53,499 bases of DNA from Candidatus Bathyarchaeota archaeon (GTDB lineage: Archaea; Thermoproteota; Bathyarchaeia; 40CM-2-53-6), in assembly GCA_005881615.1 (NCBI GenBank), contig VBBR01000036.1, positions 4,847-58,345 of the forward strand, in the 5' to 3' direction. Position 1 is the first letter of the stretch. Each line of letters starts with the position of its first letter. The notes beneath the pieces are model-generated. The model was not told the origin of the DNA. It saw only the letters and a program-made list of their open reading frames with translations, and searched no databases. Made by a program: the position numbers and the translations under genes. Positions 8,393 through 30,240 of this stretch are shown here, piece by piece.

Positions 8393-8893
8393 TCACCTTG
8401 TTACCGAGAAAGTGAACTGGTTGTTTCGCGTGGTAATCATCAGTATTGTGTACGAGTAGCCAGACGTGAATGTGTAAGCTGAGCCTGACAAGGTGCAGCC
8501 GCTGCAACTGCTTCCTATAGGGAAGTTAATCGCAACGCTCTTGTTGGGGGCTATCGTTGGTCCCGCGCCGGTGGCGTAACTGTATTGATACGAGTTGCCG
8601 TTCGAGTCTTTCACATAGTACGTTTGGATTGTTGCGTTCGCCGTTCCTAGGTTATTGATGTACGCTGTCATATTAGTGCCGTTTGAGAATGCTCCAGAAT
8701 TCGTAACGTAGTTCAAGTTCTCTTGGCCCGTAGTGGGATGTACTAGTAAGGTGCCGAGTAGTCCTGTCGACCAGGCGTAGACCATGACGGATGCAACGAC
8801 GACGATGACGACCATGAGTAGTGCTGCAAGAATCGTGTCAATGCCTTTCTTGTTGTTGAGACATTTACGAATTGATTTCATTTCTTGGCTCAC
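8393..8893 (-). CDS. Archaeal type IV pilin (major pilin candidate; ATG at 8881 is an alternative start)
   Basis: KKG|IDTILAALLMVVIVVVASVMVYAW; QENL, YINNLG. Confidence 0.92.
   Translation of the reverse strand: MSQEMKSIRKCLNNKKGIDTILAALLMVVIVVVASVMVYAWSTGLLGTLLVHPTTGQENLNYVTNSGAFSNGTNMTAYINNLGTANATIQTYYVKDSNGNSYQYSYATGAGPTIAPNKSVAINFPIGSSCSGCTLSGSAYTFTSGYSYTILMITTRNNQFTFSVTR
8736..8821. repeat. 86-bp exact direct repeat, copy 1 (pilin N-terminal helix coding region)
   Basis: GGATGTACTAGTAAGG...ACCATGAGTAG identical to 9253-9338. Confidence 0.95.
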
Positions 8894-8897
8894 CTGT

Positions 8898-9398
8898 TTA
8901 CCGGGTCACCGAGAACGAGAATTGGGTGTTCCGTGAAGTCACCATGGTGATAGTGTAAGAGTAGCCTGAGGTGAATGTGAAGGCGTTTCCGGTCAGAGTG
9001 CAGGAAGATCCACAGCTCGTGTTGATGAGGACGATGATTCCCCTCACTTGGTTCGGAGCGATCACTGGAGGTGCATTGGGTGCTGCCCACGATATCCGTG
9101 AATACTGGTTTCCGCTGGAGTCTTTGACAAAGTAGCTGGTGAGAGTAACGTTTACTGTGCCGAGTTCTCGAATGTTCATTGTAACGTTCTGGCTGTTGAA
9201 GAAAGTGCAAGGGCTACATGCCTCAAGGGCCAAATTCTCTTGGCCTGTGGTAGGATGTACTAGTAAGGTGCCGAGTAGTCCTGTCGACCAGGCGTAGACC
9301 ATGACGGATGCAACGACGACGATGACGACCATGAGTAGAGATGCGAGTATAGTGTTGATGCCTTTCTTGTTCCCTGTTATTTTTTCCAATTTTTTCAC
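8898..9398 (-). CDS. Archaeal type IV pilin, paralog of 8393-8893
   Basis: KKG|INTILASLLMVVIVVVASVMVYAW; similar C-terminus FTSGYSYTI...FSVTR. Confidence 0.92.
   Translation of the reverse strand: MKKLEKITGNKKGINTILASLLMVVIVVVASVMVYAWSTGLLGTLLVHPTTGQENLALEACSPCTFFNSQNVTMNIRELGTVNVTLTSYFVKDSSGNQYSRISWAAPNAPPVIAPNQVRGIIVLINTSCGSSCTLTGNAFTFTSGYSYTITMVTSRNTQFSFSVTR
9253..9338. repeat. 86-bp exact direct repeat, copy 2
   Basis: Identical to 8736-8821. Confidence 0.95.
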
Positions 9399-11756: not shown

Positions 11757-12971
11757 CTAGTGATGGTCGGTACTACTCAGCATGGTTCCGCTAACCTTCG
11801 CAAGGTGGGTTGGCTTCGAGGCATCGACTCCAGGGATTACCGTAGGCGTCGGGTTCCCAATCAACGCTTCAGCTGCCTCGCCTTTTGAACGGTCGAACCT
11901 CAACCGCCCACACCGTGAGATGTTTATCGCAGCAACCACATCACGGTCGACCCAAATCTCACACTTCCAGCACCGAAGAGCTCTTCTTGGTCTGCCGTCC
12001 GATTGGAGTCTCTCCCCGTATTTCGGACAGATGCTACTGGTCCCAAATGTCTCACGTCTCGACAAACGTACAACGGGTAAACCTATCCAAGCCGCTTTAT
12101 ACTCGATCTGAGATTGAGCCTTGCCAAATGACCATCCGTTCATCCTCCCTCGGAAGCTCTTCCCCTGCCAGTTTCCCTTTCGGTAGAGTCGTCGTATCCC
12201 GCGGATGCTCTCTAATACAACTGCCTTCTTTTCTTCGAACGCTCGGTGCACAATCGATTTCGTGGCATTGTGAAGGAGATTAAGGGCACGGTTTTGTCGG
12301 CGCTTACCATATTTCATCGCAAGCCTCTGCCCGATCCGGCGATCGTTTCTCTTGAAGGACGATACTATGCTCACGGTTGTGTTGGCTATTTCAACGGCCA
12401 TAGACAGATCGTATTGGATAACTGTCTCTTCGTCTCCGCAAGTCAAGTTGCGCAGGTTTCGGTCAACACCTACCGTGCCTGTGCACTCAAGCGTCACAAC
12501 CTCCTTTGAGATACAGAGACTCAGTGTGGTAGCAGTAAGTGTGAAGGAGCGCACACGCAGGGTTTTGTCGGATAGTACTAAGGCGGTATGCTTCGTCAGA
12601 GGAATTGTTTCGTATGCCTTTCGGCCTATCGGTATTTGCAAGTGACCATTCTGAATCTTGAAGTTGTAGCACGAGATCAGCAGGGGCTTAACTGCGTATG
12701 GACTCTTTGTAGCGAAACCTCTCCTCAGAGATTTCTTTCTTGAGGCCAAGATACCTGCGGCTCGGGATATTGCACAGAGCTTGTAGCAGGATGGAGAAGG
12801 GTAGCCCTTGAGCTCTCTGTATGAGAGGAGGCACAGACTCTTGAGGGACGAGACATTCTGCGAAAGCCCGATCACTATGCATCGATTTACCATTCTTCTG
12901 AATAAGTCGAGAAGTTCCAGAACCTCGGTCGACGGAGAATAGTTCTGCTTTACTGACTTTTTTGCAAGCAC
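11757..12971 (-). CDS. tnpB: TnpB RNA-guided endonuclease (IS200/IS605-type), no adjacent transposase
   Basis: RuvC-I VGVDRN, RuvC-II VLESI, QIEYKAAW, Zn finger CPKY/CWKC, RuvC-III DRDVVAAINI. Confidence 0.92.
   Translation of the reverse strand: MLAKKSVKQNYSPSTEVLELLDLFRRMVNRCIVIGLSQNVSSLKSLCLLSYRELKGYPSPSCYKLCAISRAAGILASRKKSLRRGFATKSPYAVKPLLISCYNFKIQNGHLQIPIGRKAYETIPLTKHTALVLSDKTLRVRSFTLTATTLSLCISKEVVTLECTGTVGVDRNLRNLTCGDEETVIQYDLSMAVEIANTTVSIVSSFKRNDRRIGQRLAMKYGKRRQNRALNLLHNATKSIVHRAFEEKKAVVLESIRGIRRLYRKGNWQGKSFRGRMNGWSFGKAQSQIEYKAAWIGLPVVRLSRRETFGTSSICPKYGERLQSDGRPRRALRCWKCEIWVDRDVVAAINISRCGRLRFDRSKGEAAEALIGNPTPTVIPGVDASKPTHLAKVSGTMLSSTDHH
11784..11909 (-). ncRNA. Putative omega-RNA scaffold / right end of the tnpB element
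   Basis: Overlaps the tnpB 3' end, as TnpB omega-RNAs do; homology to the 351-bp repeats stops at GGTTCC (11784); subterminal hairpin. Confidence 0.65.
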
Positions 12972-13114
12972 AGGGCACCGATTCTGGAACGCGCCCAGTT
13001 AGGTCGAAGAGAGACCCGAAAATGAATCAGCACAGGCCTCCCTAACTTCATAAGGTGTTCGGCCGAAAGCTTAAAACTGAACAGCCCAGACCTCAAACTC
13101 GGCTGTTCCAAAAA

Positions 13115-21377: not shown

Positions 21378-22406
21378 TTGAAGGCCGTGCGGTTTCACGA
21401 GTTCGGCGGGCTTGAGAAGTTGCGATTCGAAGAAGCCCCCGAACCGCATATCAGCCCGACAGAAGCTCTAGTAAGAGTTAGAGCCTGTGCACTGAACCAT
21501 CTGGACATTTGGGCAAGAGGGGGGACAAGGAGCGAGAGGATTCCCCTGCCTCATATATCGGGCTCAGACATCTCTGGAGAGATTGCCGAGCTCGGCAATC
21601 TTGTCAGCGGACATTCTAAGGGCGAGAAGGTCTTGATTGTCCCAGGAATCAGCTGTGGGATCTGTGATTACTGCAGCAACGGCTGGGACAGCCTATGCGA
21701 TTCATACAAGATTGTCGGTTACGAGACCCAGGGTGGCTATGCTGAGTTTGTTGCTGTTCCTGGAGCGAATGTTCTTCCTATTCCTGACAAGTTCAGTTTC
21801 GAGCAGGCTGCCGCTGTCCCCCTTGTCTTCTTGACTGCTTGGCATATGCTTGTGACCCGAGCACACTTGACGCCTGGAGAGACGGTTCTCGTGTGGGCAG
21901 TAGGAAGTGGAGTTGGAAGTGCCGCAGTGCAAGTTGCTAAACTCTTAGGCGCGAAAGTGATTGCTACCGTTGGGAGTGACGTGAAGAAGGAGAAGGCTCA
22001 GAAGCTTGGAGCAGATTTCGTTCTCAACCATCATATTCAGGACATACCCAGCGAAGTCAAACGCCTAACTAATGGACGAAAGGTCAATGTTGTTTTCGAC
22101 CATATCGGAGAGGCAACATGGGAGAAGAGTATGAAGTCCATGGCTCCCGCAGGACGGTTAGTCAACTGTGGGGTCACCAGCGGCGGGAAGGCTGAGATCG
22201 ACATCCGATACGTTTTCGTCAAGCAGTTTTCCCTCATGGGATCCTTTATGGGGGGACGAGGAGAGCTCCTCAAAGTCCTCAGCTTCTTCGAAGATGGAAA
22301 ACTCAAGCCGGTGCTCGACTCAATCTTTCCGCTCATGGAAGCCGCGAAGGCTCAGGAACGAATGGAAAAGAGCCAACACTTCGGGAAGATAGTCCTCAAG
22401 GTGTAA
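21378..22406 (+). CDS. Zn-binding alcohol dehydrogenase/quinone oxidoreductase (MDR family)
   Basis: ALNHLD, PHISGSD, CGICDYC..C, GSGVGSAAVQ, HFGKIVL. Confidence 0.92.
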   Translation: MKAVRFHEFGGLEKLRFEEAPEPHISPTEALVRVRACALNHLDIWARGGTRSERIPLPHISGSDISGEIAELGNLVSGHSKGEKVLIVPGISCGICDYCSNGWDSLCDSYKIVGYETQGGYAEFVAVPGANVLPIPDKFSFEQAAAVPLVFLTAWHMLVTRAHLTPGETVLVWAVGSGVGSAAVQVAKLLGAKVIATVGSDVKKEKAQKLGADFVLNHHIQDIPSEVKRLTNGRKVNVVFDHIGEATWEKSMKSMAPAGRLVNCGVTSGGKAEIDIRYVFVKQFSLMGSFMGGRGELLKVLSFFEDGKLKPVLDSIFPLMEAAKAQERMEKSQHFGKIVLKV

Positions 22407-22455
22407 TGGGATTCAACAGCTACGCCCTAGTCCGTGCAAAATCCGTTCATAACGG

Positions 22456-22806
22456 GGTTCTGTTAACTTATCGTTGGATAGGTTAACTTGCTCTCATCGA
22501 CTCCAGGGATTACCGTCGTCGTCGGGTTCCATTTCATCGCTTCAACTGGGAGCCCTTCCGCCTCAAGCCCACTCAGGGTCTTTCTTGGCCTGGAACGGTC
22601 GAACCTCAACCGCCCCCAGAACAGGCACTAAGCCTATCATCTATTGTAAGCCTCTCTCACACCCGTAAGCCTCCTTCCAGGTCAATAGACCATTCACAGG
22701 CCTCTTACACAGGCGCTCATACACGACGACGCACCACCATACTCCCTCTGCAAAATAATAGTTTGAGGCCCGTGAAAGTACGATCCAGCGAAGAGTTAAC
22801 AGAGCT
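22456..22806 (-). mobile_element. 351-bp MITE-like element, copy 1; IS6-like TIRs; tnpB-derived omega-RNA-like right half
   Basis: Ends GGTTCTGTTAACTT and GAGTTAACAGAGCT; 8-bp TSD CATAACGG (22448-55, 22807-14); 6 substitutions versus copy 2. Confidence 0.92.
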
Positions 22807-22862
22807 CATAACGGTAAAGTGCAATGCGGCCCGGGTGTTAGAGACCGAGAAAGGCTGACACC

Positions 22863-23255
22863 ATGAAGACAAACCCATTGACCGATGTTTCCGCGGAAAA
22901 ATCCATCGCACGTGAGCTGGCAAAGCGCCGAGCCTTCATTGTCCTGTTTATCGTGTCGATCGAGATTGTTGGAGCCTTCATAGGCTTAGAAGGCGACATG
23001 CTCGCTCATGCGCTAGACGATTACGCGATTCTAGCAATATCGGTCGTAGCACTCGTAGTGATTGGGGCCATGTGGAAGAAGCAGTCGCTTGCTGGTCTAA
23101 GGAAGCAGCACAACATTTTGCTCGCCCTCCTTATCGTCGCATTAGTATTCCAGATCTACGCATTTGTCGCAGAGGCCAACGATCCTACTGATCTTGGGAA
23201 TGAGTATCCTTCCTTGACCATTCTGGTCTTAATGGTAATCAACAAGTTCATCTGA
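22863..23255 (+). CDS. Small 4-TM membrane protein, unknown function
   Basis: 130 aa, four hydrophobic helices, HALDD motif. Confidence 0.75.
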   Translation: MKTNPLTDVSAEKSIARELAKRRAFIVLFIVSIEIVGAFIGLEGDMLAHALDDYAILAISVVALVVIGAMWKKQSLAGLRKQHNILLALLIVALVFQIYAFVAEANDPTDLGNEYPSLTILVLMVINKFI

Positions 23256-23324
23256 CGGGCGACGCGAATCGTATGATGAACGAGGAATCGTCTGATAGGT
23301 CGATAGTGTTGATCTGGTTGCGGC

Positions 23325-23495
23325 CTACTCTGGTACTGAGGTTGTAATGAGTTTTCCATCGACGACTTTGACGAATAGGTAGCGGTTGTCTCTGAGAATG
23401 ACGGTCACTTCATTCTCCCCCTCTTCAATCTCCAAGATTTCTTGTCCTCTGATCCCGTCATATTTTGCCAAAGTGAGATTCGCCTGCTTCATCAT
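23325..23495 (-). CDS. Small hypothetical protein (56 aa, below the ORF-track cutoff)
   Basis: Read manually: MMKQANLTLAKYDGIRGQEILEIEEGENEVTVILRDNRYLFVKVVDGKLITTSVPE; co-oriented with the upstream gene. Confidence 0.55.
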   Translation of the reverse strand: MMKQANLTLAKYDGIRGQEILEIEEGENEVTVILRDNRYLFVKVVDGKLITTSVPE

Positions 23496-23554
23496 TCCGA
23501 TGATCTGGCCACATAAAGATGACGGCTGTCATTTTGCGGTGAAATCGGAAAAAC

Positions 23555-24112
23555 TCAGGCGATCTGAATTTTCAGAGGAAGCGATTTCCCAGAAGCTTCT
23601 CCTCGCTCTGTGAAAACGTGCTTGCCCCACTTGGCGCTAACGTTGGCTCCTAGAGTGTGATTGCCCTTCCCAAGTGAGCTTGCTGGGAGCTCGAAGCTCC
23701 GCGTCACGTTGAACATCATCTCTCTCGCTTCCTCCTCAGTTTTCGGATAGAGAATCGTCTCGAATTCTGTTGCCACAGTCATCCAGACTCGATGAGGAAG
23801 CTCGGGGTTTCGCGTCCAGAAGAAAACTGCCCTCCGAACGAATTTCTCTTCTTTCAACGGCTTAGGAAGCAAGCGAAGCCTAGACTTGCGGAGTTCAGCC
23901 TTGAAGGCCATCCGCAGCCCACCGTCATGCTGGTCGTAGGCAGCTTCCCAGAATTTCTGATGAAAGTTTCGGCGGACGACGCCGTCAAGCCGGAAACCCA
24001 CAGTGAAGGCAAGATTATCGTCAACCTTAGCGTTAGACGGCGAGCACTTGACTGTAACATTCTCGATACGCGCCCAGCTACCGGCGTCCTGCTTCACAAC
24101 AGATTTCTGCAA
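23555..24112 (-). CDS. Hypothetical protein
   Basis: 185-aa ORF with protein-like composition, divergent from the peptidase. Confidence 0.7.
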   Translation of the reverse strand: MQKSVVKQDAGSWARIENVTVKCSPSNAKVDDNLAFTVGFRLDGVVRRNFHQKFWEAAYDQHDGGLRMAFKAELRKSRLRLLPKPLKEEKFVRRAVFFWTRNPELPHRVWMTVATEFETILYPKTEEEAREMMFNVTRSFELPASSLGKGNHTLGANVSAKWGKHVFTERGEASGKSLPLKIQIA

Positions 24113-24233
24113 TTTTTTCTCACTAGGCCCGAGGATGGCGGTCTTGCGCTTCCACGCTGAAAAACCTTGGCATCAGCACTCGACTCTCTGAAGCGATTAT
24201 AAGAACAGCCCGTAACGGACATCTGAGATAGCC

Positions 24234-26081
24234 ATGTCATCAAACCGTCCGAGATATGGTTTCGATCGATACTCTAGCGTACGCATAGCCTATGGACCAA
24301 GCTTCGCGCCTGATGGTCAGCATATCTCGTTCATCAGTGACATTACCGGAGTCCCGCAAGCCTGGATTCTAGACCTTGCAACAAGTCGAATAGACCAGTT
24401 GACACTGTTCAACGAGCGCGTTTCTTCGGCCGTCTTTTCGCCGACCGGCCAAAACCTAGGACTCTCGATGGACCCTGGAGGCGGCGAGAAGCACCAAGTA
24501 TGGACTTTGGACATGGAGAATCTCGCGGCGAAGAAATTGACCGTTGGAGACGATTGGATCCGCGTCATCGGCTCCTTCTCTCCTAGCGGTGAGTCGGTGT
24601 GCTATGCGTCAAACGAGAGAGATGAGAAATTCTTCGACATCTACACAAGCGTTCTTGTGAGCGGAGAGAAGAATCTCGTCTACCAGAACGACGCTACGAA
24701 CTATCCCTTGGACTGGGTAGACAAAGATCGAATTCTCTTCACAAAGGCAAACACCAACCTAGACAATGATCTCTATCTGCTCTGGCCTGAAACGGGGGAG
24801 ATAGCTCACCTCACAAAGCACTCCGGTGAAGCGAGCTTTGACTATGCTGGCCATGCCAAAGACATGAGCACGTTGTATGTTCTGACAAGCAAAGATCGGG
24901 AATTCCTCCAGCCCGCTACTATCGATGTTGGAACCGGACACTTGGATTATCTGATCGAAGAGGACTGGGACGCGATAGGTGGGAGTGTCTCCCATGATAC
25001 TCGCTTGCTAGCGTACTTCCGGAACGTCGACGGGGCTAGCAGATTGCATATTTACGACCTGGAGAAGAAACAGGATTCTGTGGTTGATGGTCTTCCTCTA
25101 GGGGCTTTTGAGTCGCCTGTAGTTTCGGGCCGCAACCTAATGGATTGGAGCCCTGATTCCAAACGTCTCGTGTTCAGCTTCCAGGGCCCGAAGCACAACC
25201 TGAACCTCTGGCTCTACGATGTTGAAGACAATTTGGTTAGGCAAGTCACGTTTGCCCCGACCGGGGCCATTCCAACTTCAAATCTCGTCGAGCCCGAAGG
25301 TTTGAGATTTCCCAGTTTCGACGACCTCGTCATTCCTGTGTGGGCCTACCGGCCGGCTAGTCGTCGAGAATCGCTGCCAACGGTTGTCTTTGTCCACGGG
25401 GGCCCGGAAAGCCAAGAGACTGCCCGGTTCAACGTCATCATCCAATACCTGGTCAACCGCGGCTTCCTGGTCCTGGCCCCGAACGTGCGTGGTAGCACAG
25501 GCTATGGCAAGAAAGGCGTCCATCTGGATGATGTCGATAAGCGCCTCGACTCTGTTCGGGACCTAGAATATCTAGTAAAGTGGGCGGTTGGAAAAGGCCT
25601 CGCAAAGCAAGACAGAGTAGGAATCGTAGGCGGCAGCTACGGCGGCTTCATGGTTCTGTCGGCAATAACAGAATACCCGGACATATGGGCAGCTGGAGTT
25701 GATCTCGTAGGCATCGCGAATTTTGAGACGTTTCTGGAAAACACGGCGCGCTGGAGACGACACTTGAGAGAGGCAGAATACGGTAGCCTCGAAAACGACA
25801 GGGAACTTTTCAAACGGATCTCACCAATCCACAAGGTGGACAAGATCCAGGCGCCCCTGCTGGTAATCCATGGGGCCAACGATCCCAGAGTCCCAGTAGG
25901 GGAAGCGGAGCAGATAGTGGAGAGATTGAAAGAACTTGGAAGACACGTCGAATTTTTGAGATTCGAGGACGAGGGACATGGGATCGCGAAGATCCCGAAC
26001 AGGATCAAAGCCTACACTGCGATCGGCGACTTTCTAGAACGGACCTTGCTTGCTGCAGACAAACCGTCGCCGAATATGTAG
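24234..26081 (+). CDS. S9 family peptidase (acylaminoacyl peptidase, beta-propeller plus alpha/beta hydrolase)
   Basis: HGGPESQ, NVRGSTGYG, GGSYGG, HGANDPRVP, DEGHG. Confidence 0.95.
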   Translation: MSSNRPRYGFDRYSSVRIAYGPSFAPDGQHISFISDITGVPQAWILDLATSRIDQLTLFNERVSSAVFSPTGQNLGLSMDPGGGEKHQVWTLDMENLAAKKLTVGDDWIRVIGSFSPSGESVCYASNERDEKFFDIYTSVLVSGEKNLVYQNDATNYPLDWVDKDRILFTKANTNLDNDLYLLWPETGEIAHLTKHSGEASFDYAGHAKDMSTLYVLTSKDREFLQPATIDVGTGHLDYLIEEDWDAIGGSVSHDTRLLAYFRNVDGASRLHIYDLEKKQDSVVDGLPLGAFESPVVSGRNLMDWSPDSKRLVFSFQGPKHNLNLWLYDVEDNLVRQVTFAPTGAIPTSNLVEPEGLRFPSFDDLVIPVWAYRPASRRESLPTVVFVHGGPESQETARFNVIIQYLVNRGFLVLAPNVRGSTGYGKKGVHLDDVDKRLDSVRDLEYLVKWAVGKGLAKQDRVGIVGGSYGGFMVLSAITEYPDIWAAGVDLVGIANFETFLENTARWRRHLREAEYGSLENDRELFKRISPIHKVDKIQAPLLVIHGANDPRVPVGEAEQIVERLKELGRHVEFLRFEDEGHGIAKIPNRIKAYTAIGDFLERTLLAADKPSPNM

Positions 26082-26194
26082 ATCCTCTCTGTCCAATCGT
26101 TCTTACCCAAACTAGAATGGGAAAGAGCGGGATAGAGACTCCCGTAGCTCTTCGATTTCCAAGCAAAAATGCTTTGGAAGCTGTTTTTCCGGGT

Positions 26195-27859
26195 TTAGGT
26201 GCCGGTTATGGGTTCGATGTGTACGGCGCTGCAGCCGCATCCGTCGGCGTGCTTTCCGCGTCGTAGTTGTCCGCGGTAGAGTCGTGATTCGAGTTTCTCG
26301 CCATTCTTCTTCTCCCACTCTTCCACGCTGATACCGTACTTTTTCTGTATGCGGTCACGGTACCATTCGGGGATGACGTTGAAGCTGCAGAACGGAATGA
26401 TCCTCATGTCTGGTGTGAGGTAGTGTATGTCGCATCGCTGTAGTCGCTCTTCGTCCTGGTTGTACTTGTCTTGGAAGTGCATCATGCCGAGGAACATGCT
26501 TCGGACGTGGAACTGTCCCACTGAGCTGTAGTCGTGTTTCAGCAATGCCCCTACGAGCAGCTTGCTGAGGTTGAGTCCTGCTGGTTGCTTGTCTTTCTCG
26601 ATGAAGCTGTTCAGCTTGGTAATGAATTTTGCAGCGACCAAGTATTTGTTTGTGCCCGAGTTCAGCTCGTCTGTCTTCTCGTCAAGGTACTCGAATAGTC
26701 CTTTGAGATCGACGAAGGAGGTGATTGGGACCATCTTCCTGGTGTCTTTGTCCTCGAACACGTATGTTCCAGCGCCGCACGCGAAGTGTATCGACAGCTC
26801 GTACTGGGGTCGCTTCGTGAATGCTTCCACGAAGTGGGTTACTGGTGAGCAGCTTGGGACTGGGAACCACGCGTCTCGTGGAATCTCTCCGTTGGTCTGC
26901 TCTTCGATCCTCTCGATGCAGTCTGGAATGGTAATTCGGTACTTTTCCCTCTCTTGCTTTTTCATTCGTCCCGTTAGAGACACTGGCTGGTAGCTGATTG
27001 CTCGGACGATGTCGATGTTTCTCTGGGCGAAGCGGAGTATGCCGCCTAGCTCGTGATCATTGATCGACTTGATGACTGTCGGGACGAGCACTACTCCGAG
27101 GTTTGCCTTTCGGCAACTCTCGATTGTATAGGGTGCTTCCCAGTGGTTCTTCGGGTTGGTCTTCGGACTGACTCCGTCGAAGCTCATGTAGAGGTTGCTG
27201 AGCCCGTTATCGCGTAGGATATGGGCTAGGTTGGGGTTGAGTGCGAGGTTGATTCCGTTCGTATTGAGCTGGATGTGGTCTACGCCCTCTTCTTTGATGA
27301 TCTTGACGATCTCTGGAAGCTCGGGTCGTAGGGTCGGTTCTCCTCCAGTTATCTGGAGCGAGTTTCCTGGGACCGGCCTCTCAGCTTTGAGAGCTCGGAC
27401 CATTTCCTTGACCTGGTCGAGGCTTGGCTCGTATACGTACGCTCCTTCGAGGCCCTTTTTGACATAGAAGAAACAGTACCAGCAGGTCAAGTCGCAACGG
27501 TTAGTAACGATGATATTCGCAAGACCGGTATGGCTGAGGTGATTAGAGCACAAGCCGCAGTTCGCGGGGCATGCGCAACTCTCAATCGGGACGTTCGGTG
27601 CATGGGTTCCTTTGCCGTCAGACCAGTAGGTCGCGAATTTCTGATACATGTCGTACGAGCCGAAGTAGAGCTCTTCTGTCTCACCGTGTTCTGGGCAGGT
27701 CTTAGTCATGAAGACCTTGCCTTCCCGCTCGAAGACGGTGCTTGGCAGAATGCGGTTGCACTCTGGGCAGATGCTTTGCGTTCGGCGAATGAATTGTCCT
27801 ATTTGCTTCTGCGGCGACTGTAGTTCCGCTGGTAGTTCGATTTCTAATAGTGCCATCAT
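26195..27859 (-). CDS. tes: Tetraether lipid synthase (Tes/GDGT-MAS, radical SAM)
   Basis: N-terminal CPEC...CPEH, CPANCGLCSNH, TNRCDLTCWYC, GGEPT, C-terminal IIPFC. Confidence 0.88.
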   Translation of the reverse strand: MMALLEIELPAELQSPQKQIGQFIRRTQSICPECNRILPSTVFEREGKVFMTKTCPEHGETEELYFGSYDMYQKFATYWSDGKGTHAPNVPIESCACPANCGLCSNHLSHTGLANIIVTNRCDLTCWYCFFYVKKGLEGAYVYEPSLDQVKEMVRALKAERPVPGNSLQITGGEPTLRPELPEIVKIIKEEGVDHIQLNTNGINLALNPNLAHILRDNGLSNLYMSFDGVSPKTNPKNHWEAPYTIESCRKANLGVVLVPTVIKSINDHELGGILRFAQRNIDIVRAISYQPVSLTGRMKKQEREKYRITIPDCIERIEEQTNGEIPRDAWFPVPSCSPVTHFVEAFTKRPQYELSIHFACGAGTYVFEDKDTRKMVPITSFVDLKGLFEYLDEKTDELNSGTNKYLVAAKFITKLNSFIEKDKQPAGLNLSKLLVGALLKHDYSSVGQFHVRSMFLGMMHFQDKYNQDEERLQRCDIHYLTPDMRIIPFCSFNVIPEWYRDRIQKKYGISVEEWEKKNGEKLESRLYRGQLRRGKHADGCGCSAVHIEPITGT

Positions 27860-27957
27860 ATACCACTCTGAGTAGTAAATACGCGTAGCGGCACCAGTAT
27901 TAATGCTTTTGACACCAGTCACAAGATGAAATAGGGTACAACCCTGAGGGGTGTTTC

Positions 27958-28359
27958 ATGCCTGTTCCGGGCTCTCTCAAGCGCCAACCAGTAAACAAGA
28001 GCGAGATCGCTCAGCTTCTGGAACACCAATTCAATCTCCCAGCAATGGAAACGCTTGCCTATCTTCAGATGCTCGAACGAGACAGCGTTGGAGTAGATGA
28101 GCTCGCTGAAACTCTCGCCCTCTCAAAAGAGGAGACAAGCGACCTTCTTCAAGCAATGATTAGCAGAGGTCTCATCATACGGGCACCAAGATCAAAAGAT
28201 GCCTTCAGCGCACTTCATCCAAGGATGACAATGACCAACATCTTCAAGATCTACGAGAAGGACCTTGTTCAGTCTCTCAGGGACCGTAGAGCTACAGTTG
28301 ACAGAGTGGTCAACCTCTTGACACCTATCTATGAGGAAAAGAAACCGGATTTGAACTAG
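27958..28359 (+). CDS. TrmB-like HTH protein
   Basis: FNLPAMETLAYLQML...LAETLAL...MISRGLI...FSALHP. Confidence 0.75.
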   Translation: MPVPGSLKRQPVNKSEIAQLLEHQFNLPAMETLAYLQMLERDSVGVDELAETLALSKEETSDLLQAMISRGLIIRAPRSKDAFSALHPRMTMTNIFKIYEKDLVQSLRDRRATVDRVVNLLTPIYEEKKPDLN

Positions 28360-28979
28360 GCTTCTTCAGAGGCTTGAGGGGGAAGCGGATTAGGACTGTA
28401 CCGTTTTTTGTCCTTGTTCTCCTGTAGAATATCCGCAAACGGCTCGCCCTCTTCTTCAGACTCAGCCTTTTCGTCAGCTTCCTGAGACTGGGTGCTCTCC
28501 TCAGCTGAAGAATCCTCTGCGGCTAGGTTCGTTTCGTCCATGGATTCCGTTGGAGATGGGTTCGCTTCGACCGGCACAGTAGGAGGAACGTCCGGAGCCG
28601 GGTGTGCCAGTGTCTCTGCTAAAGGGGTCTCGGGAACGACCGCGATTGCAGTGGACTCCTCGGCAGAGGCCTCAAGCGACGGCTCCTCCGGCTCGTCAGA
28701 CGGAGCCGTGACGTGTTCTCTTTCCCGAGGGATTATCGCTCGGGGGTCCTTGACACCATAGAACCGGTCTGTGAAGTAAGAATAGACATCTATCGTCTGA
28801 GCAGCGGGATGAGCAGGAAAATCGTCTTTGAGCTGGCAGAGAGCGCAGAGGACCGTTGCGTGTCCAGTCTGCTTGTCAATCGTTACCCTAACAGCTTCTT
28901 CGCCGCATCGTGGGCATGTGAAGACGGTTGGTAGTTTCTTCTTGACGATTCTAACTACTCGGCGTCTTCTTCTCCCCAA
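28356..28979 (-). CDS. elf1: Transcription elongation factor Elf1 with long acidic tail
   Basis: MGRRRRR..KLPTVFTCPRCG..CALC..IDVYSYFTD. Confidence 0.88.
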   Translation of the reverse strand: MGRRRRRVVRIVKKKLPTVFTCPRCGEEAVRVTIDKQTGHATVLCALCQLKDDFPAHPAAQTIDVYSYFTDRFYGVKDPRAIIPREREHVTAPSDEPEEPSLEASAEESTAIAVVPETPLAETLAHPAPDVPPTVPVEANPSPTESMDETNLAAEDSSAEESTQSQEADEKAESEEEGEPFADILQENKDKKRYSPNPLPPQASEEA

Positions 28980-29196
28980 CCCAAACGACTCTTGTCATCC
29001 AAGAGGGATGGAGTCAATATTTACCTTTTGTCGGTGGTTCTTCCCTCGAAAAACTAGCTACAAGCATGGGTCAATGGGAACATCAGTTGCATAGGCGAAA
29101 ACCCTACTAGTGCCCCTTGAAACGGCGGATCCACTTCGTTCTCGGACAAAGGGATACGGAACGGTTAATCCGCTAAGAATCCCACTGGAATTCTCA

Positions 29197-29460
29197 TGAG
29201 AAACGGAGACCTAGCGAGTATCGGAAAAATACTGGCGCTTGCTGGTTTTTTCTCGGTGATGTTCGGGGTTTTCTCTATTCGCTGCTGATTCGGGAGGCCT
29301 GTGTGGCGACATACTCCGACCAAGCAATGGGCCAGGTTGCACAACTAACTACAGTCCCCTAGTTCTGCCCACAATCATCGGAGGAGCGTTGATAGCGGCA
29401 GGCGCTTGGCTATTCTTCGTGTTCAAGCCACAGAGCATGATGCCATCGAGTCCAATCTAA
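29197..29460 (+). pseudogene. Frameshifted small 2-TM membrane protein
   Basis: MRNGDLASIGKILALAGFFSVMFGVF continues in another frame as LFAADSGGLCGD...LVLPTIIGGALIAAGAWLFFVFK; shift near 29270. Confidence 0.45.
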
Positions 29461-29578
29461 CTACCGGCGGAGTGAACCGCGACACCAGCCTCCTCGAATT
29501 GGAATTTGCATCGGACGGAAGCTATTTGCTGTCAACACGGGAAAGGATACCCTAGAACGGGCACTCAAGGCGGCCTGT

Positions 29579-29775
29579 GAAACTATGGAAATACGCTCTG
29601 AAAATGCCCTCTTTCTGAGAAAGGTTCCAAATCGCGTTCCCGATCAGTATCTGAATCAACTATTCAGAAAGAATTTCTGAAACCTCTTTCGAAACTTGGT
29701 TGTTGAAACGACCTCTCTGAACCACTATTTGAAACGGGTCCCGGAATCCCTTCCTGGAAACCGTAACCGTAAATT
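29579..29775 (+). repeat. Phased array of GAAAC-like motifs, 12-14-bp spacing
   Basis: GAA starts at 29653, 29667, 29679, 29691, 29705, 29719, 29731, 29744, 29757; inverted repeat TTCAGAAA-GAA-TTTCTGAA at 29663-29681. Confidence 0.65.
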
Positions 29776-29836
29776 TTCCGGGCCCCCGGACCCCTACTCA
29801 ATTCTCGCCCGCGACAGCGAGGGAACGAAAGTATAG

Positions 29837-30187
29837 GGTTCTGTTAACTTATCGTTGGATAGGTTAACTTGCTCTCATCGACTCTAGGGATTACCGTCGT
29901 CGTCGGGTTCCATTTCACCGCTTCAACTGGGAGCCCTTCCGCCTCAAGCCCACTCAGGGTCTTTCTTGGCCTGGAACGGTCGAACCTCAACCGCCCCCAG
30001 AACAGGCACTAGGCCTATCATCTATTGTAAGCCTCTCTCACACCCGTAAGCCTCCTTCCAGGTCAATAGACCATTCACAGGCCTCTTGCACAGGCGCTCA
30101 TACACGACGACGCACCACCATACTCCCTCCGCAAAATAATAGTTTGAGGCCCGTGAAAGTACGATCCAGCGAAGAGTTAACAGAGCC
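29837..30187 (-). mobile_element. 351-bp MITE-like element, copy 2
   Basis: Ends GGTTCTGTTAACTT and GAGTTAACAGAGCC; 8-bp TSD AAGTATAG (29829-36, 30188-95). Confidence 0.92.
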
Positions 30188-30240
30188 AAGTATAGCAAGC
30201 GCTTATTACACGCGATTTTCCGCCAGTTCAACCGGTAACT

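Follow-up and report, generated by a model that had tools for sequence, protein, structure and literature searches.

A probable TnpB target-adjacent motif at the insertion sites of elements with IS6-like ends in a soil Bathyarchaeia archaeon

In the genome of a soil Bathyarchaeia archaeon (Candidatus Bathyarchaeota archaeon, assembly GCA_005881615.1), transposable elements with ends like those of the insertion sequence (IS) family IS6 carry the RNA-guided nuclease TnpB or what appears to be the scaffold of its guide RNA, the omegaRNA. The stretch analysed here, referred to as the window, comprises 53,499 nucleotides of contig VBBR01000036.1 and contains two 351-bp miniature inverted-repeat transposable elements (MITEs) and one tnpB open reading frame (ORF) (Table 1). 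Just outside the 8-bp target duplication at the left end of these and related elements stands a T-rich tetranucleotide, YTTR. This motif is probably the target-adjacent motif (TAM) of TnpB: the guide would consist of the duplication and the flank downstream of it, and only the element-free (empty) allele would be cleavable.

According to the original prediction, which was made from the two window MITEs, their empty alleles read CTTTA and GCTTG on the minus strand up to the start of a would-be guide, placing a YTTR motif directly 5' of that guide at both sites. The reconstruction is correct and so is the motif: both copies possess 8-bp duplications, and TTTA in copy 1 and CTTG in copy 2 adjoin the one at the left end. 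For copy 1, a 9-bp duplication combined with an element one base shorter is an alternative fit; the motif adjoins the duplication in both cases. Two congeneric genomes (G018:C6 and G012:C76) lack the element at the locus of copy 1; they carry a single 8-mer, CATAATAG, and are colinear on both sides, so that the insertion is real. Public runs listed as holding this DNA number 20, from soil metagenomes, and no RNA run is among them. In contigs of four soil-metagenome runs covering window positions 21900-23300, both filled-allele junctions of copy 1 are bridged; a join skipping the MITE was not reported there, and the empty allele of the same population was not seen. For copy 2, no usable empty site was obtained: among the 21 other genomes of the genus, two match the left flank, weakly and in part.

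With only two sites the motif could have arisen by chance, as the original prediction conceded, and a logo of the insertion sites of all genomic copies was proposed as the check. Left ends were collected by BLAST with eight left-end seeds; 32 were kept after five hits to MITE right ends and one hit without a tip had been dropped. At positions -12 to -9 on the tnpB strand, just outside the duplication, NTTR is present in 26/32 left ends (genome background 2.5%) and YTTR in 22/32 (background 0.0125). Position by position, T is found at -11 in 30 ends and at -10 likewise in 30, a purine at -9 in 27 and a pyrimidine at -12 in 26. The two discovery copies are not required for this result: without them, NTTR is found at 24 of 30 left ends (binomial p ~1e-33). 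Right ends read in the same way have NTTR in 1/29 cases and hold no information at the positions beyond the duplication (left versus right, Fisher p 2e-10); the motif follows the orientation of the guide RNA. NTTR is found at all 13 left/right pairs of the genome whose duplication is intact, 11 of them perfect and 2 having a single mismatch. Beyond this genome, two perfect duplications in other Bathyarchaeota metagenome-assembled genomes (MAGs) are preceded by CTTG (L008) and ATTG (L010), and in four genomes of the genus TTR is found at 6 of 8 clean duplication-flanked pairs (L026, L030, L034, L036, L043, L045). A metagenome scan with a 21-mer from the MITE left end yielded 14 loci; their left-end flanks are of 7 distinct kinds, 5 of which show TTR. 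Judged from this natural insertion-site logo, the empty allele would present a TAM immediately upstream of the sequence that the guide matches.

On the other side of the element lies the presumable source of the guide. Read on the minus strand, about 165 nt of the MITE beside its right end correspond to the 3' end of the 404-aa ORF of the window and to the sequence downstream of it. An alignment of 25 unique scaffold sequences from this genome and other Bathyarchaeota MAGs gave, with RNAalifold, a consensus of 30 base pairs, 13 of which are supported by compensatory double changes; among them are the terminal hairpin and a stem of long range (GCUCU/AGAGC, CGGGG/CCCCG, CCUCC/GGAGG). An Rfam scan of the MITE region matched no family. 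The scaffold is retained in all three MITE families of the genome and, being conserved and structured, suggests that the MITEs keep a guide-RNA scaffold and little else. A structured scaffold that overlaps the 3' end of tnpB and reaches the right end, as in OMEGA systems, thus seems to be present. Its 3' end is invariant (ACAGAACC); since the right end of the element stops at exactly this sequence, a guide transcribed beyond it would start with the 8-bp duplication. The guide length given for copy 1 in Table 1 is assumed from other TnpB systems.

These features could act together in the following manner: An IS6-like DDE transposase, supplied in trans, would bind the GGYWCTGT... ends, insert the element and make the 8-bp duplication. 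The omegaRNA would be transcribed through the right end, its guide comprising the duplication and the next ~8-12 nt of flank, and YTTR on the left-end side of the duplication would act as the TAM directly 5' of the TnpB target. The empty allele, consisting of YTTR, a single 8-mer and the flank, would then combine TAM and full match and be cut by TnpB. In the filled allele, the left junction would offer YTTR with a match of 8 nt that stops at GGYWCTG, and the right junction a full match that is preceded by AACC; the geometry behind this discrimination, which the original prediction had deduced for a guide beginning with the duplication, is found in every intact copy. Repair of the cut empty allele from a filled copy would spread the insertion to other chromosome copies or cells (homing or retention). 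Insertions without YTTR at the proper place and in the proper orientation would not be driven and would seldom be seen, which would explain why the motif is oriented and near-universal.

Several observations weigh against this reading. Six of the 32 left ends lack the motif (C34, C52, C93, C126, C131, C137); in these, the tips are degenerate, the duplication is missing, or the motif is displaced by one base. The window copy of tnpB, which is not among the 32, is a seventh miss (TGAA, no duplication). In the genus, two pairs with perfect duplications are exceptions, reading TATA (L031) and CGTG (L032), each one substitution away from TTTA or CTTG, and an odd-tipped ninth pair reads TTCT (L044). 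Two of the 7 distinct metagenome junctions lack TTR, namely ATCG (L154), where there is no duplication (3/8 matching), and AGCA, where the right end lies off the contig. The empty sites of copy 1 in the sister genomes read CTTCC and CTTCA and have no TAM, at an identity of 84-92%. The IS6-like transposase was not found in the window's own genome, which is 89% complete. Known IS6 elements, as described in the sections of a family review that deal with their movement, transpose by replicative cointegration without excision (PMC7986276), so that the classical role of restoring an element after its excision would not apply; the benefit would then be the spread to empty copies or cells. Finally, a preference for NTTG in this position is also a property of the IS6-like transposase family, and the mobilising transposase could have a stronger and oriented preference, since the tips differ (GGC.. 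versus GGT..).

The last point leads to the alternative that survives best, although it is unlikely: YTTR would be a mere target-site preference of the mobilising IS6-like transposase, and its likeness to a T-rich TAM would be coincidental or irrelevant. Autonomous relatives without TnpB serve as controls here. From 90 loci around IS6-like transposases, 59 duplication-flanked elements were obtained, of which 54 remained after removal of re-fetched duplicates and one composite; they belong to genera other than the host's, with transposases that share 50-63% identity with the one encoded by an autonomous element of the host's genus (G003:C14, described below). Their duplications measure 8 bp in 51 cases and 9 bp in 3. 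When 19 flanks abutting another IS end and one identical flank are dropped, 82 unique control flanks remain, of which 19 carry NTTR; this is about nine times the background of 2.5%, and 18 of the 19 lie within a longer ATATAAAY-NTTG motif. A second observation in favour of the transposase is the bias of the duplication's first base in the TnpB elements (TTA|C, TTG|T), which is outside a 4-nt TAM. In other respects the two sets of sites differ. The motif is present at 81% of TnpB-element left ends (26/32) versus 23% of control flanks (19/82; Fisher p 2e-8). In the controls it stands on one side of 22/54 elements and never on both, either on the 5' side of the transposase (9) or on the 3' side (13), whereas in TnpB elements it is at the left end in 26 cases and at the right end in 1. 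The ratio of TTA to TTG is 14:12 in TnpB elements versus 3:16 in controls (p 0.013), and CTTA, the commonest word in the former (10/32), does not occur in the latter. A TATA-like hexamer at -26 to -12 accompanies 2/32 TnpB left ends versus 35/82 control flanks (background 0.5%). Moreover, the one autonomous copy from the same genus (G003:C14; n=1) has GTTT and ACTG flanks, with no TTR on either side. The differing frequency, TTA:TTG ratio and context argue that the TnpB-element sites would not be a filtered subset of the transposase family's usual targets. Of the original claim, the orientation of the motif with the omegaRNA has held (26/32 versus 1/29), and the NTTG preference of the transposase family could supply part of the signal.

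In a second alternative, which is quite improbable, TAM-bound TnpB (with or without RNA) would help to capture the target, opening the first base pairs and positioning the transposase, with strand transfer at TAM+0 and TAM+8. The fixed distance between motif and left tip, the motif in 13/13 duplication-intact copies of the genome and the lack of the autonomous elements' TATA-like context, which suggests a different choice of targets, would all be in keeping with it; the perfect-duplication exceptions L031 and L032 would not, and selection after insertion accounts for the same data. We know of no TnpB or IS6 system that uses TnpB-guided target capture, and a protein feature indicative of contact with the transposase was not found, no search aimed at it having been made. 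If true, it would represent a minimal natural forerunner of nuclease-directed transposition, and the MITEs would be "guide-only" parasites that borrow both transposase and nuclease in trans. The remaining alternative, that two T-rich tetranucleotides stand beside two insertions by chance (probability ~1e-3 to 1e-4 from the two window copies alone), is refuted by NTTR at the 24 of 30 further left ends and has practically no probability left. Two other origins of the arrangement were also discarded: Y1-type insertion 3' of TTAC is ruled out by the first base of the 8-mer, which is itself duplicated, and TnpB cutting as the source of the duplication is ruled out because the duplication begins at the TAM-proximal base.

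Table 1. Features of the window discussed in the text (window positions; strand given where assigned)
Feature	Positions	Strand	Remarks
tnpB ORF, 404 aa	11757..12971	-	RuvC D/E/D positions kept; one zinc-finger Cys replaced by Tyr (CPKY)
Old tnpB element	11784..13038	-	Degenerate right end GGTTCCGCTAAC, left end GGCCTGTGCTGA; no duplication; TGAA at the place of the TAM
Predicted guide, copy 1	22436..22455	-	Duplication plus 12 nt of flank; inferred
Copy 1 target duplication CATAACGG, 8 bp, right end	22448..22455		Supplies nt 1-8 of the predicted minus-strand guide
omegaRNA-like scaffold, copy 1	22456..22620	-	Ends at the right-end tip ...ACAGAACC; matches the tnpB 3' end and downstream region
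MITE copy 1, 351 bp	22456..22806	-	Right end at 22456 (GGTTCTGTTAAC on the plus strand), left end at 22806; without TnpB ORF
Copy 1 target duplication CATAACGG, 8 bp, left end	22807..22814
Copy 1 TAM-like TTTA	22815..22818	-	Plus-strand TAAAG reads CTTTA including 22819
Copy 2 target duplication AAGTATAG, 8 bp, right end	29829..29836		Equals the start of the predicted guide
MITE copy 2, 351 bp	29837..30187	-	98-99% identity to copy 1
Copy 2 target duplication AAGTATAG, 8 bp, left end	30188..30195
Copy 2 TAM-like CTTG	30196..30199	-	Plus-strand CAAGC reads GCTTG including 30200

The nuclease itself shows the RuvC-like D/E/D triad and the zinc ribbon of a TnpB. The 404-aa ORF of the window scores 52.8 bits against Pfam PF07282 (cut-off 26.3); TIGR01766 is above its cut-off, and NF040570 reaches 82.5-89 bits, under the cut-off of 100. 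Structures of ISDra2 TnpB match at E 4e-7, with D169, E252 and D340/342 aligned. The genome (193 contigs, 2.23 Mb) holds 27 TnpB matches, 4 of them intact; judged from the Pfam score, the ISDra2 match, the conserved triad and the four intact copies, this TnpB looks active. The copy in the window may be decaying, as it has lost a zinc ligand (CPKY instead of the CPRC of its relatives, codons at window positions 12000-12060) and its ends are degenerate, with the diverged tips GGTTCCGC and GGCCTGTG.

Elements of this type are numerous, with about 30 such right ends in the genome. They fall into tnpB-only elements of 1275-1281 bp, which hold a single gene, a MITE family of 388-393 bp, the 351-bp MITE, one MITE of 147 bp, and truncated pieces. 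Every type starts with GG(C/T)(T/A)CTGT and ends with ...ACAGAACC on the tnpB strand. The 351-bp element is short and non-coding and has inverted ends, a target duplication and several copies, which are 98-99% identical (C4 (n=2), C152 and C140, with a partial copy in C156), as expected of a MITE. The 147-bp MITE (G000 C87:20768-20914) consists of ~117 nt of the 3' part of the omegaRNA and 30 nt of the left end, and has a perfect duplication, GGCATCCA, with ATTA at the place of the TAM.

The ends of these elements differ from those of the IS families that TnpB is held to serve. According to the sections of the literature drawn on here, IS200/IS605 and IS607 elements have neither terminal inverted repeats (TIRs) nor target duplications (PMC13565253, PMC4810608), and membership in either group is ruled out by the inverted repeats GGYWCTGT... 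and the 8-bp duplications found here. The Y1 transposase domain (PF01797) was not found in any of the 22 genomes of the genus, the window's own included. For the IS6/IS26 family, the pertinent sections of two papers give GG tips, a cTGTt core, inverted repeats of 15-20 bp and 8-bp direct repeats (PMC7986276, PMC8477213), with TGT at repeat positions 6-8 of IS26 needed for transposase binding (PMC8477213, PMC7986276). The elements described here have inverted repeats with GG tips and this core (tips GGTTCTGTTAAC, GGCTCTGTTAAC, GGCACTGTCAAC and GGTTCTGTCAAG, sharing GG and CTGT) and retain the 'caaa' motif of the family only in part (CAA). Direct repeats of 8 bp flank the own-genome pairs as well as 51 of the 54 autonomous relatives.

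An autonomous element from the same genus links these ends to a transposase. The G003:C14 element (L055 3546-6237, 2692 bp) has perfect 23-nt inverted repeats, GGTTCTGTCAAGTCTCCGGTGTT, which are nearly a family-B right end, and a perfect duplication, CCCGGAAT. The protein that it encodes (402 aa) combines a SWIM finger with a DDE_Tnp_IS240 domain (PF13610, 61.9 bits; cut-off 27); its best NCBIfam hit is NF033587 IS6 (116.9 bits, under the cut-off of 125). Autonomous elements with GGCTCTGTTAAC/GGTTCTGTTAAC tips, e.g. L134, match the family-A ends, and of 401 genomes sampled across the class, 88 hold homologues of the IS6-like transposase. The near-identity of their ends to those of an autonomous IS6-like element suggests that the 1.28-kb tnpB-only elements and the three MITE families are non-autonomous IS6-type elements, the cargo of which would be TnpB and/or the omegaRNA scaffold. 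Because the same-genus autonomous element has near-identical ends, the transposase is presumably supplied in trans by an IS6-like enzyme.

Further searches for a transposase remained negative within their scope. Besides PF01797, neither PF12762 nor PF01609 was found in the own genome, nor PF01610 in the 22 genomes of the genus; PF00665, PF00239, PF00872, PF13358, PF13610 and PF01548 were not found in G000, G017, G018 and G033, with hits in G007 alone. As these genomes are incomplete, the negatives are not proof of absence. The IS6-like gene of G007 has no clear inverted ends. ISL3 and IS1595 are both families with 8-bp duplications; as sources of the transposase they are unsupported by the transposase profile searches. 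A self-BLAST of the genome revealed no other multicopy IS, its long repeats being ordinary paralogous genes, and a longer element with the same tips and a duplication was found neither in this genome nor in five relatives. At 12 further MAG loci near tnpB relatives, the nearest 31 of 76 ORFs of at least 170 aa were scanned and proved to be housekeeping genes, except for one IS110 transposase, which sits beside a truncated tnpB. At this locus in an Asgard MAG (L016 6502-7026), the IS110-type transposase directly follows a tnpB relative that is cut off after residue 129, and is probably an insertion into the element.

TnpB and a DDE transposase did not occur in one element, the TnpB elements being single-gene. 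TnpB was detected by tblastn in none of the 54 autonomous IS6-like control elements, nor in a Pfam scan of 34 cargo ORFs, which were taken from 73 further ORFs of at least 180 aa inside these elements. The scanned cargo comprises restriction-modification, methylase, ParB-like, DprA, NYN, proteasome-like or Pfam-unmatched genes. L092, L093, L101, L115, L127 and L134 are among the passenger carriers, and many of the ORFs have no Pfam match.

The system combines traits of several known ones. With the TnpB/omegaRNA pairs of IS200/IS605 elements (ISDra2, PATE derivatives) it shares a TnpB with RuvC D/E/D triad and zinc ribbon, an omegaRNA scaffold extending from the tnpB 3' end, with which it overlaps, as far as the right end, and a flank-derived guide; the left-side motif would act as the TAM in the same way, leaving only the element-free allele as a target, and short non-coding derivatives exist in both. 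Unlike these elements, those described here lack subterminal hairpin ends and have inverted repeats and 8-bp duplications, with Y1 TnpA in 0/22 genomes of the genus; the duplication separates the putative TAM from the left end and would become the first 8 nt of the guide. With IS6/IS26 they have in common the GG tips, the CTGT core at positions 5-8, the 8-bp repeats, the occurrence of MITEs and autonomous relatives with a DDE_Tnp_IS240/IS6-like transposase. They differ from that family in their cargo, an RNA-guided nuclease or guide scaffold, in having no transposase of their own, and in the oriented YTTR at their insertion sites; the archaeal transposase is, moreover, longer (~400 aa, with a SWIM zinc finger) and falls just under the NCBI cut-off for IS6.

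In the sections of the IS6 family review consulted for passengers, one passenger-carrying member is described and TnpB is not mentioned (PMC7986276). TnpB within DDE transposons with inverted repeats has been reported in six branches, and mobilisation in trans has been suggested for solo TnpBs that share those ends, as stated in the relevant part of that study (PMC10691335); one of the six could be of the kind seen here. The DDE partners named in the corresponding section of a 2026 review are ISL2, IS630 and IS1031, not IS6 (PMC13565253), and an IS6 profile is listed among those used in the portion of the supplement of Altae-Tran et al. (PNAS 2023) that was drawn on. A link between TnpB and IS6 was not found in print, the published lists of DDE-branch transposon ends being outside this comparison; nor was such an element described in the literature found on TnpB with target duplications, inverted repeats or DDE transposases, and on IS1341 with repeats. 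In the Fanzor-bearing TIR transposons, according to the section on them, the TAM includes a fixed 5' duplication (TA, TTAA), and the scaffold contains the 3' duplication (PMC13565253). As in DDE-associated TnpBs and Fanzor, a TnpB homologue is enclosed by inverted terminal repeats here, and Fanzor likewise links duplication and TAM; unlike in Fanzor, the duplication is variable, the putative TAM lies outside it, and the duplication would itself be guide sequence. The arrangement appears to be new in its combination of three traits: a variable duplication that would serve as guide seed, a putative TAM beyond the duplication, and MITEs with a guide scaffold as cargo.

TnpB is generally seen as a helper of transposons whose excision leaves no scar (IS200/IS605, IS607), and how it might serve a DDE transposon with variable duplications is an open matter in the section of the review concerned (PMC13565253). 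The elements of this archaeon would offer one natural solution: with a guide that opens with the 8-bp duplication and a TAM immediately beyond it, the empty allele would remain uniquely targetable. The genome can be regarded as a natural TAM library with dozens of independent insertions, the TnpB-less relatives being a built-in control, and YTTR is the TAM predicted from it for a compact archaeal TnpB. TnpB would thereby be linked to ends of the IS6/IS26 kind, and MITEs would have a guide-RNA scaffold as their conserved cargo.

Some copies depart from the standard structure. Solo left-end stubs of 12-63 nt followed by unrelated DNA (G000 C85:6916, C94:22813, C129:736, C148:13941 and C193:49318) have CTTA or TTTG at the proper distance; the site of the C85 stub carries a full MITE left end in the metagenome contig L148, so that this stub arose later by internal deletion. 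In some MITE copies (L156, L154; G000 C152:9037-9387, C188:4346-4737), the two flanks derive from different insertion sites, e.g. the right-end flank of the C152 site joined with the left-end flank of the C140 site, which indicates rearrangements between copies or replicative intramolecular events. G000 C56:24546-24935 and L006 possess imperfect duplications of the same kind, in which the outermost bases are C..G at the left end versus T..A at the right end and the 6 nt between them agree, which may reflect transitions or a 6-bp duplication.

The autonomous IS6-like elements of Bathyarchaeia (2.0-5.6 kb, with 8-bp duplications) are found ~12 nt from ATATAAAY-NTTG on one side, e.g. L134 312-4724, L068 959-3791 and L124 2275-6198. 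This motif resembles the archaeal TATA box, and the autonomous elements may target promoters. A subgroup with GGTAACG tips repeatedly uses TTACGTAA. Different IS6-like elements also occur head to tail with exactly one shared 8-bp duplication between them (L088 1958-9883; L096, L098, L099, L118); in one example, CTATTTCT is found three times around two elements, and 19/102 control flanks abut another IS end at 8 bp. Elsewhere in the window, a direct repeat of 141 nt (8714-8854 and 9231-9371; 92% identity, 517 nt apart) is unrelated to the MITEs.

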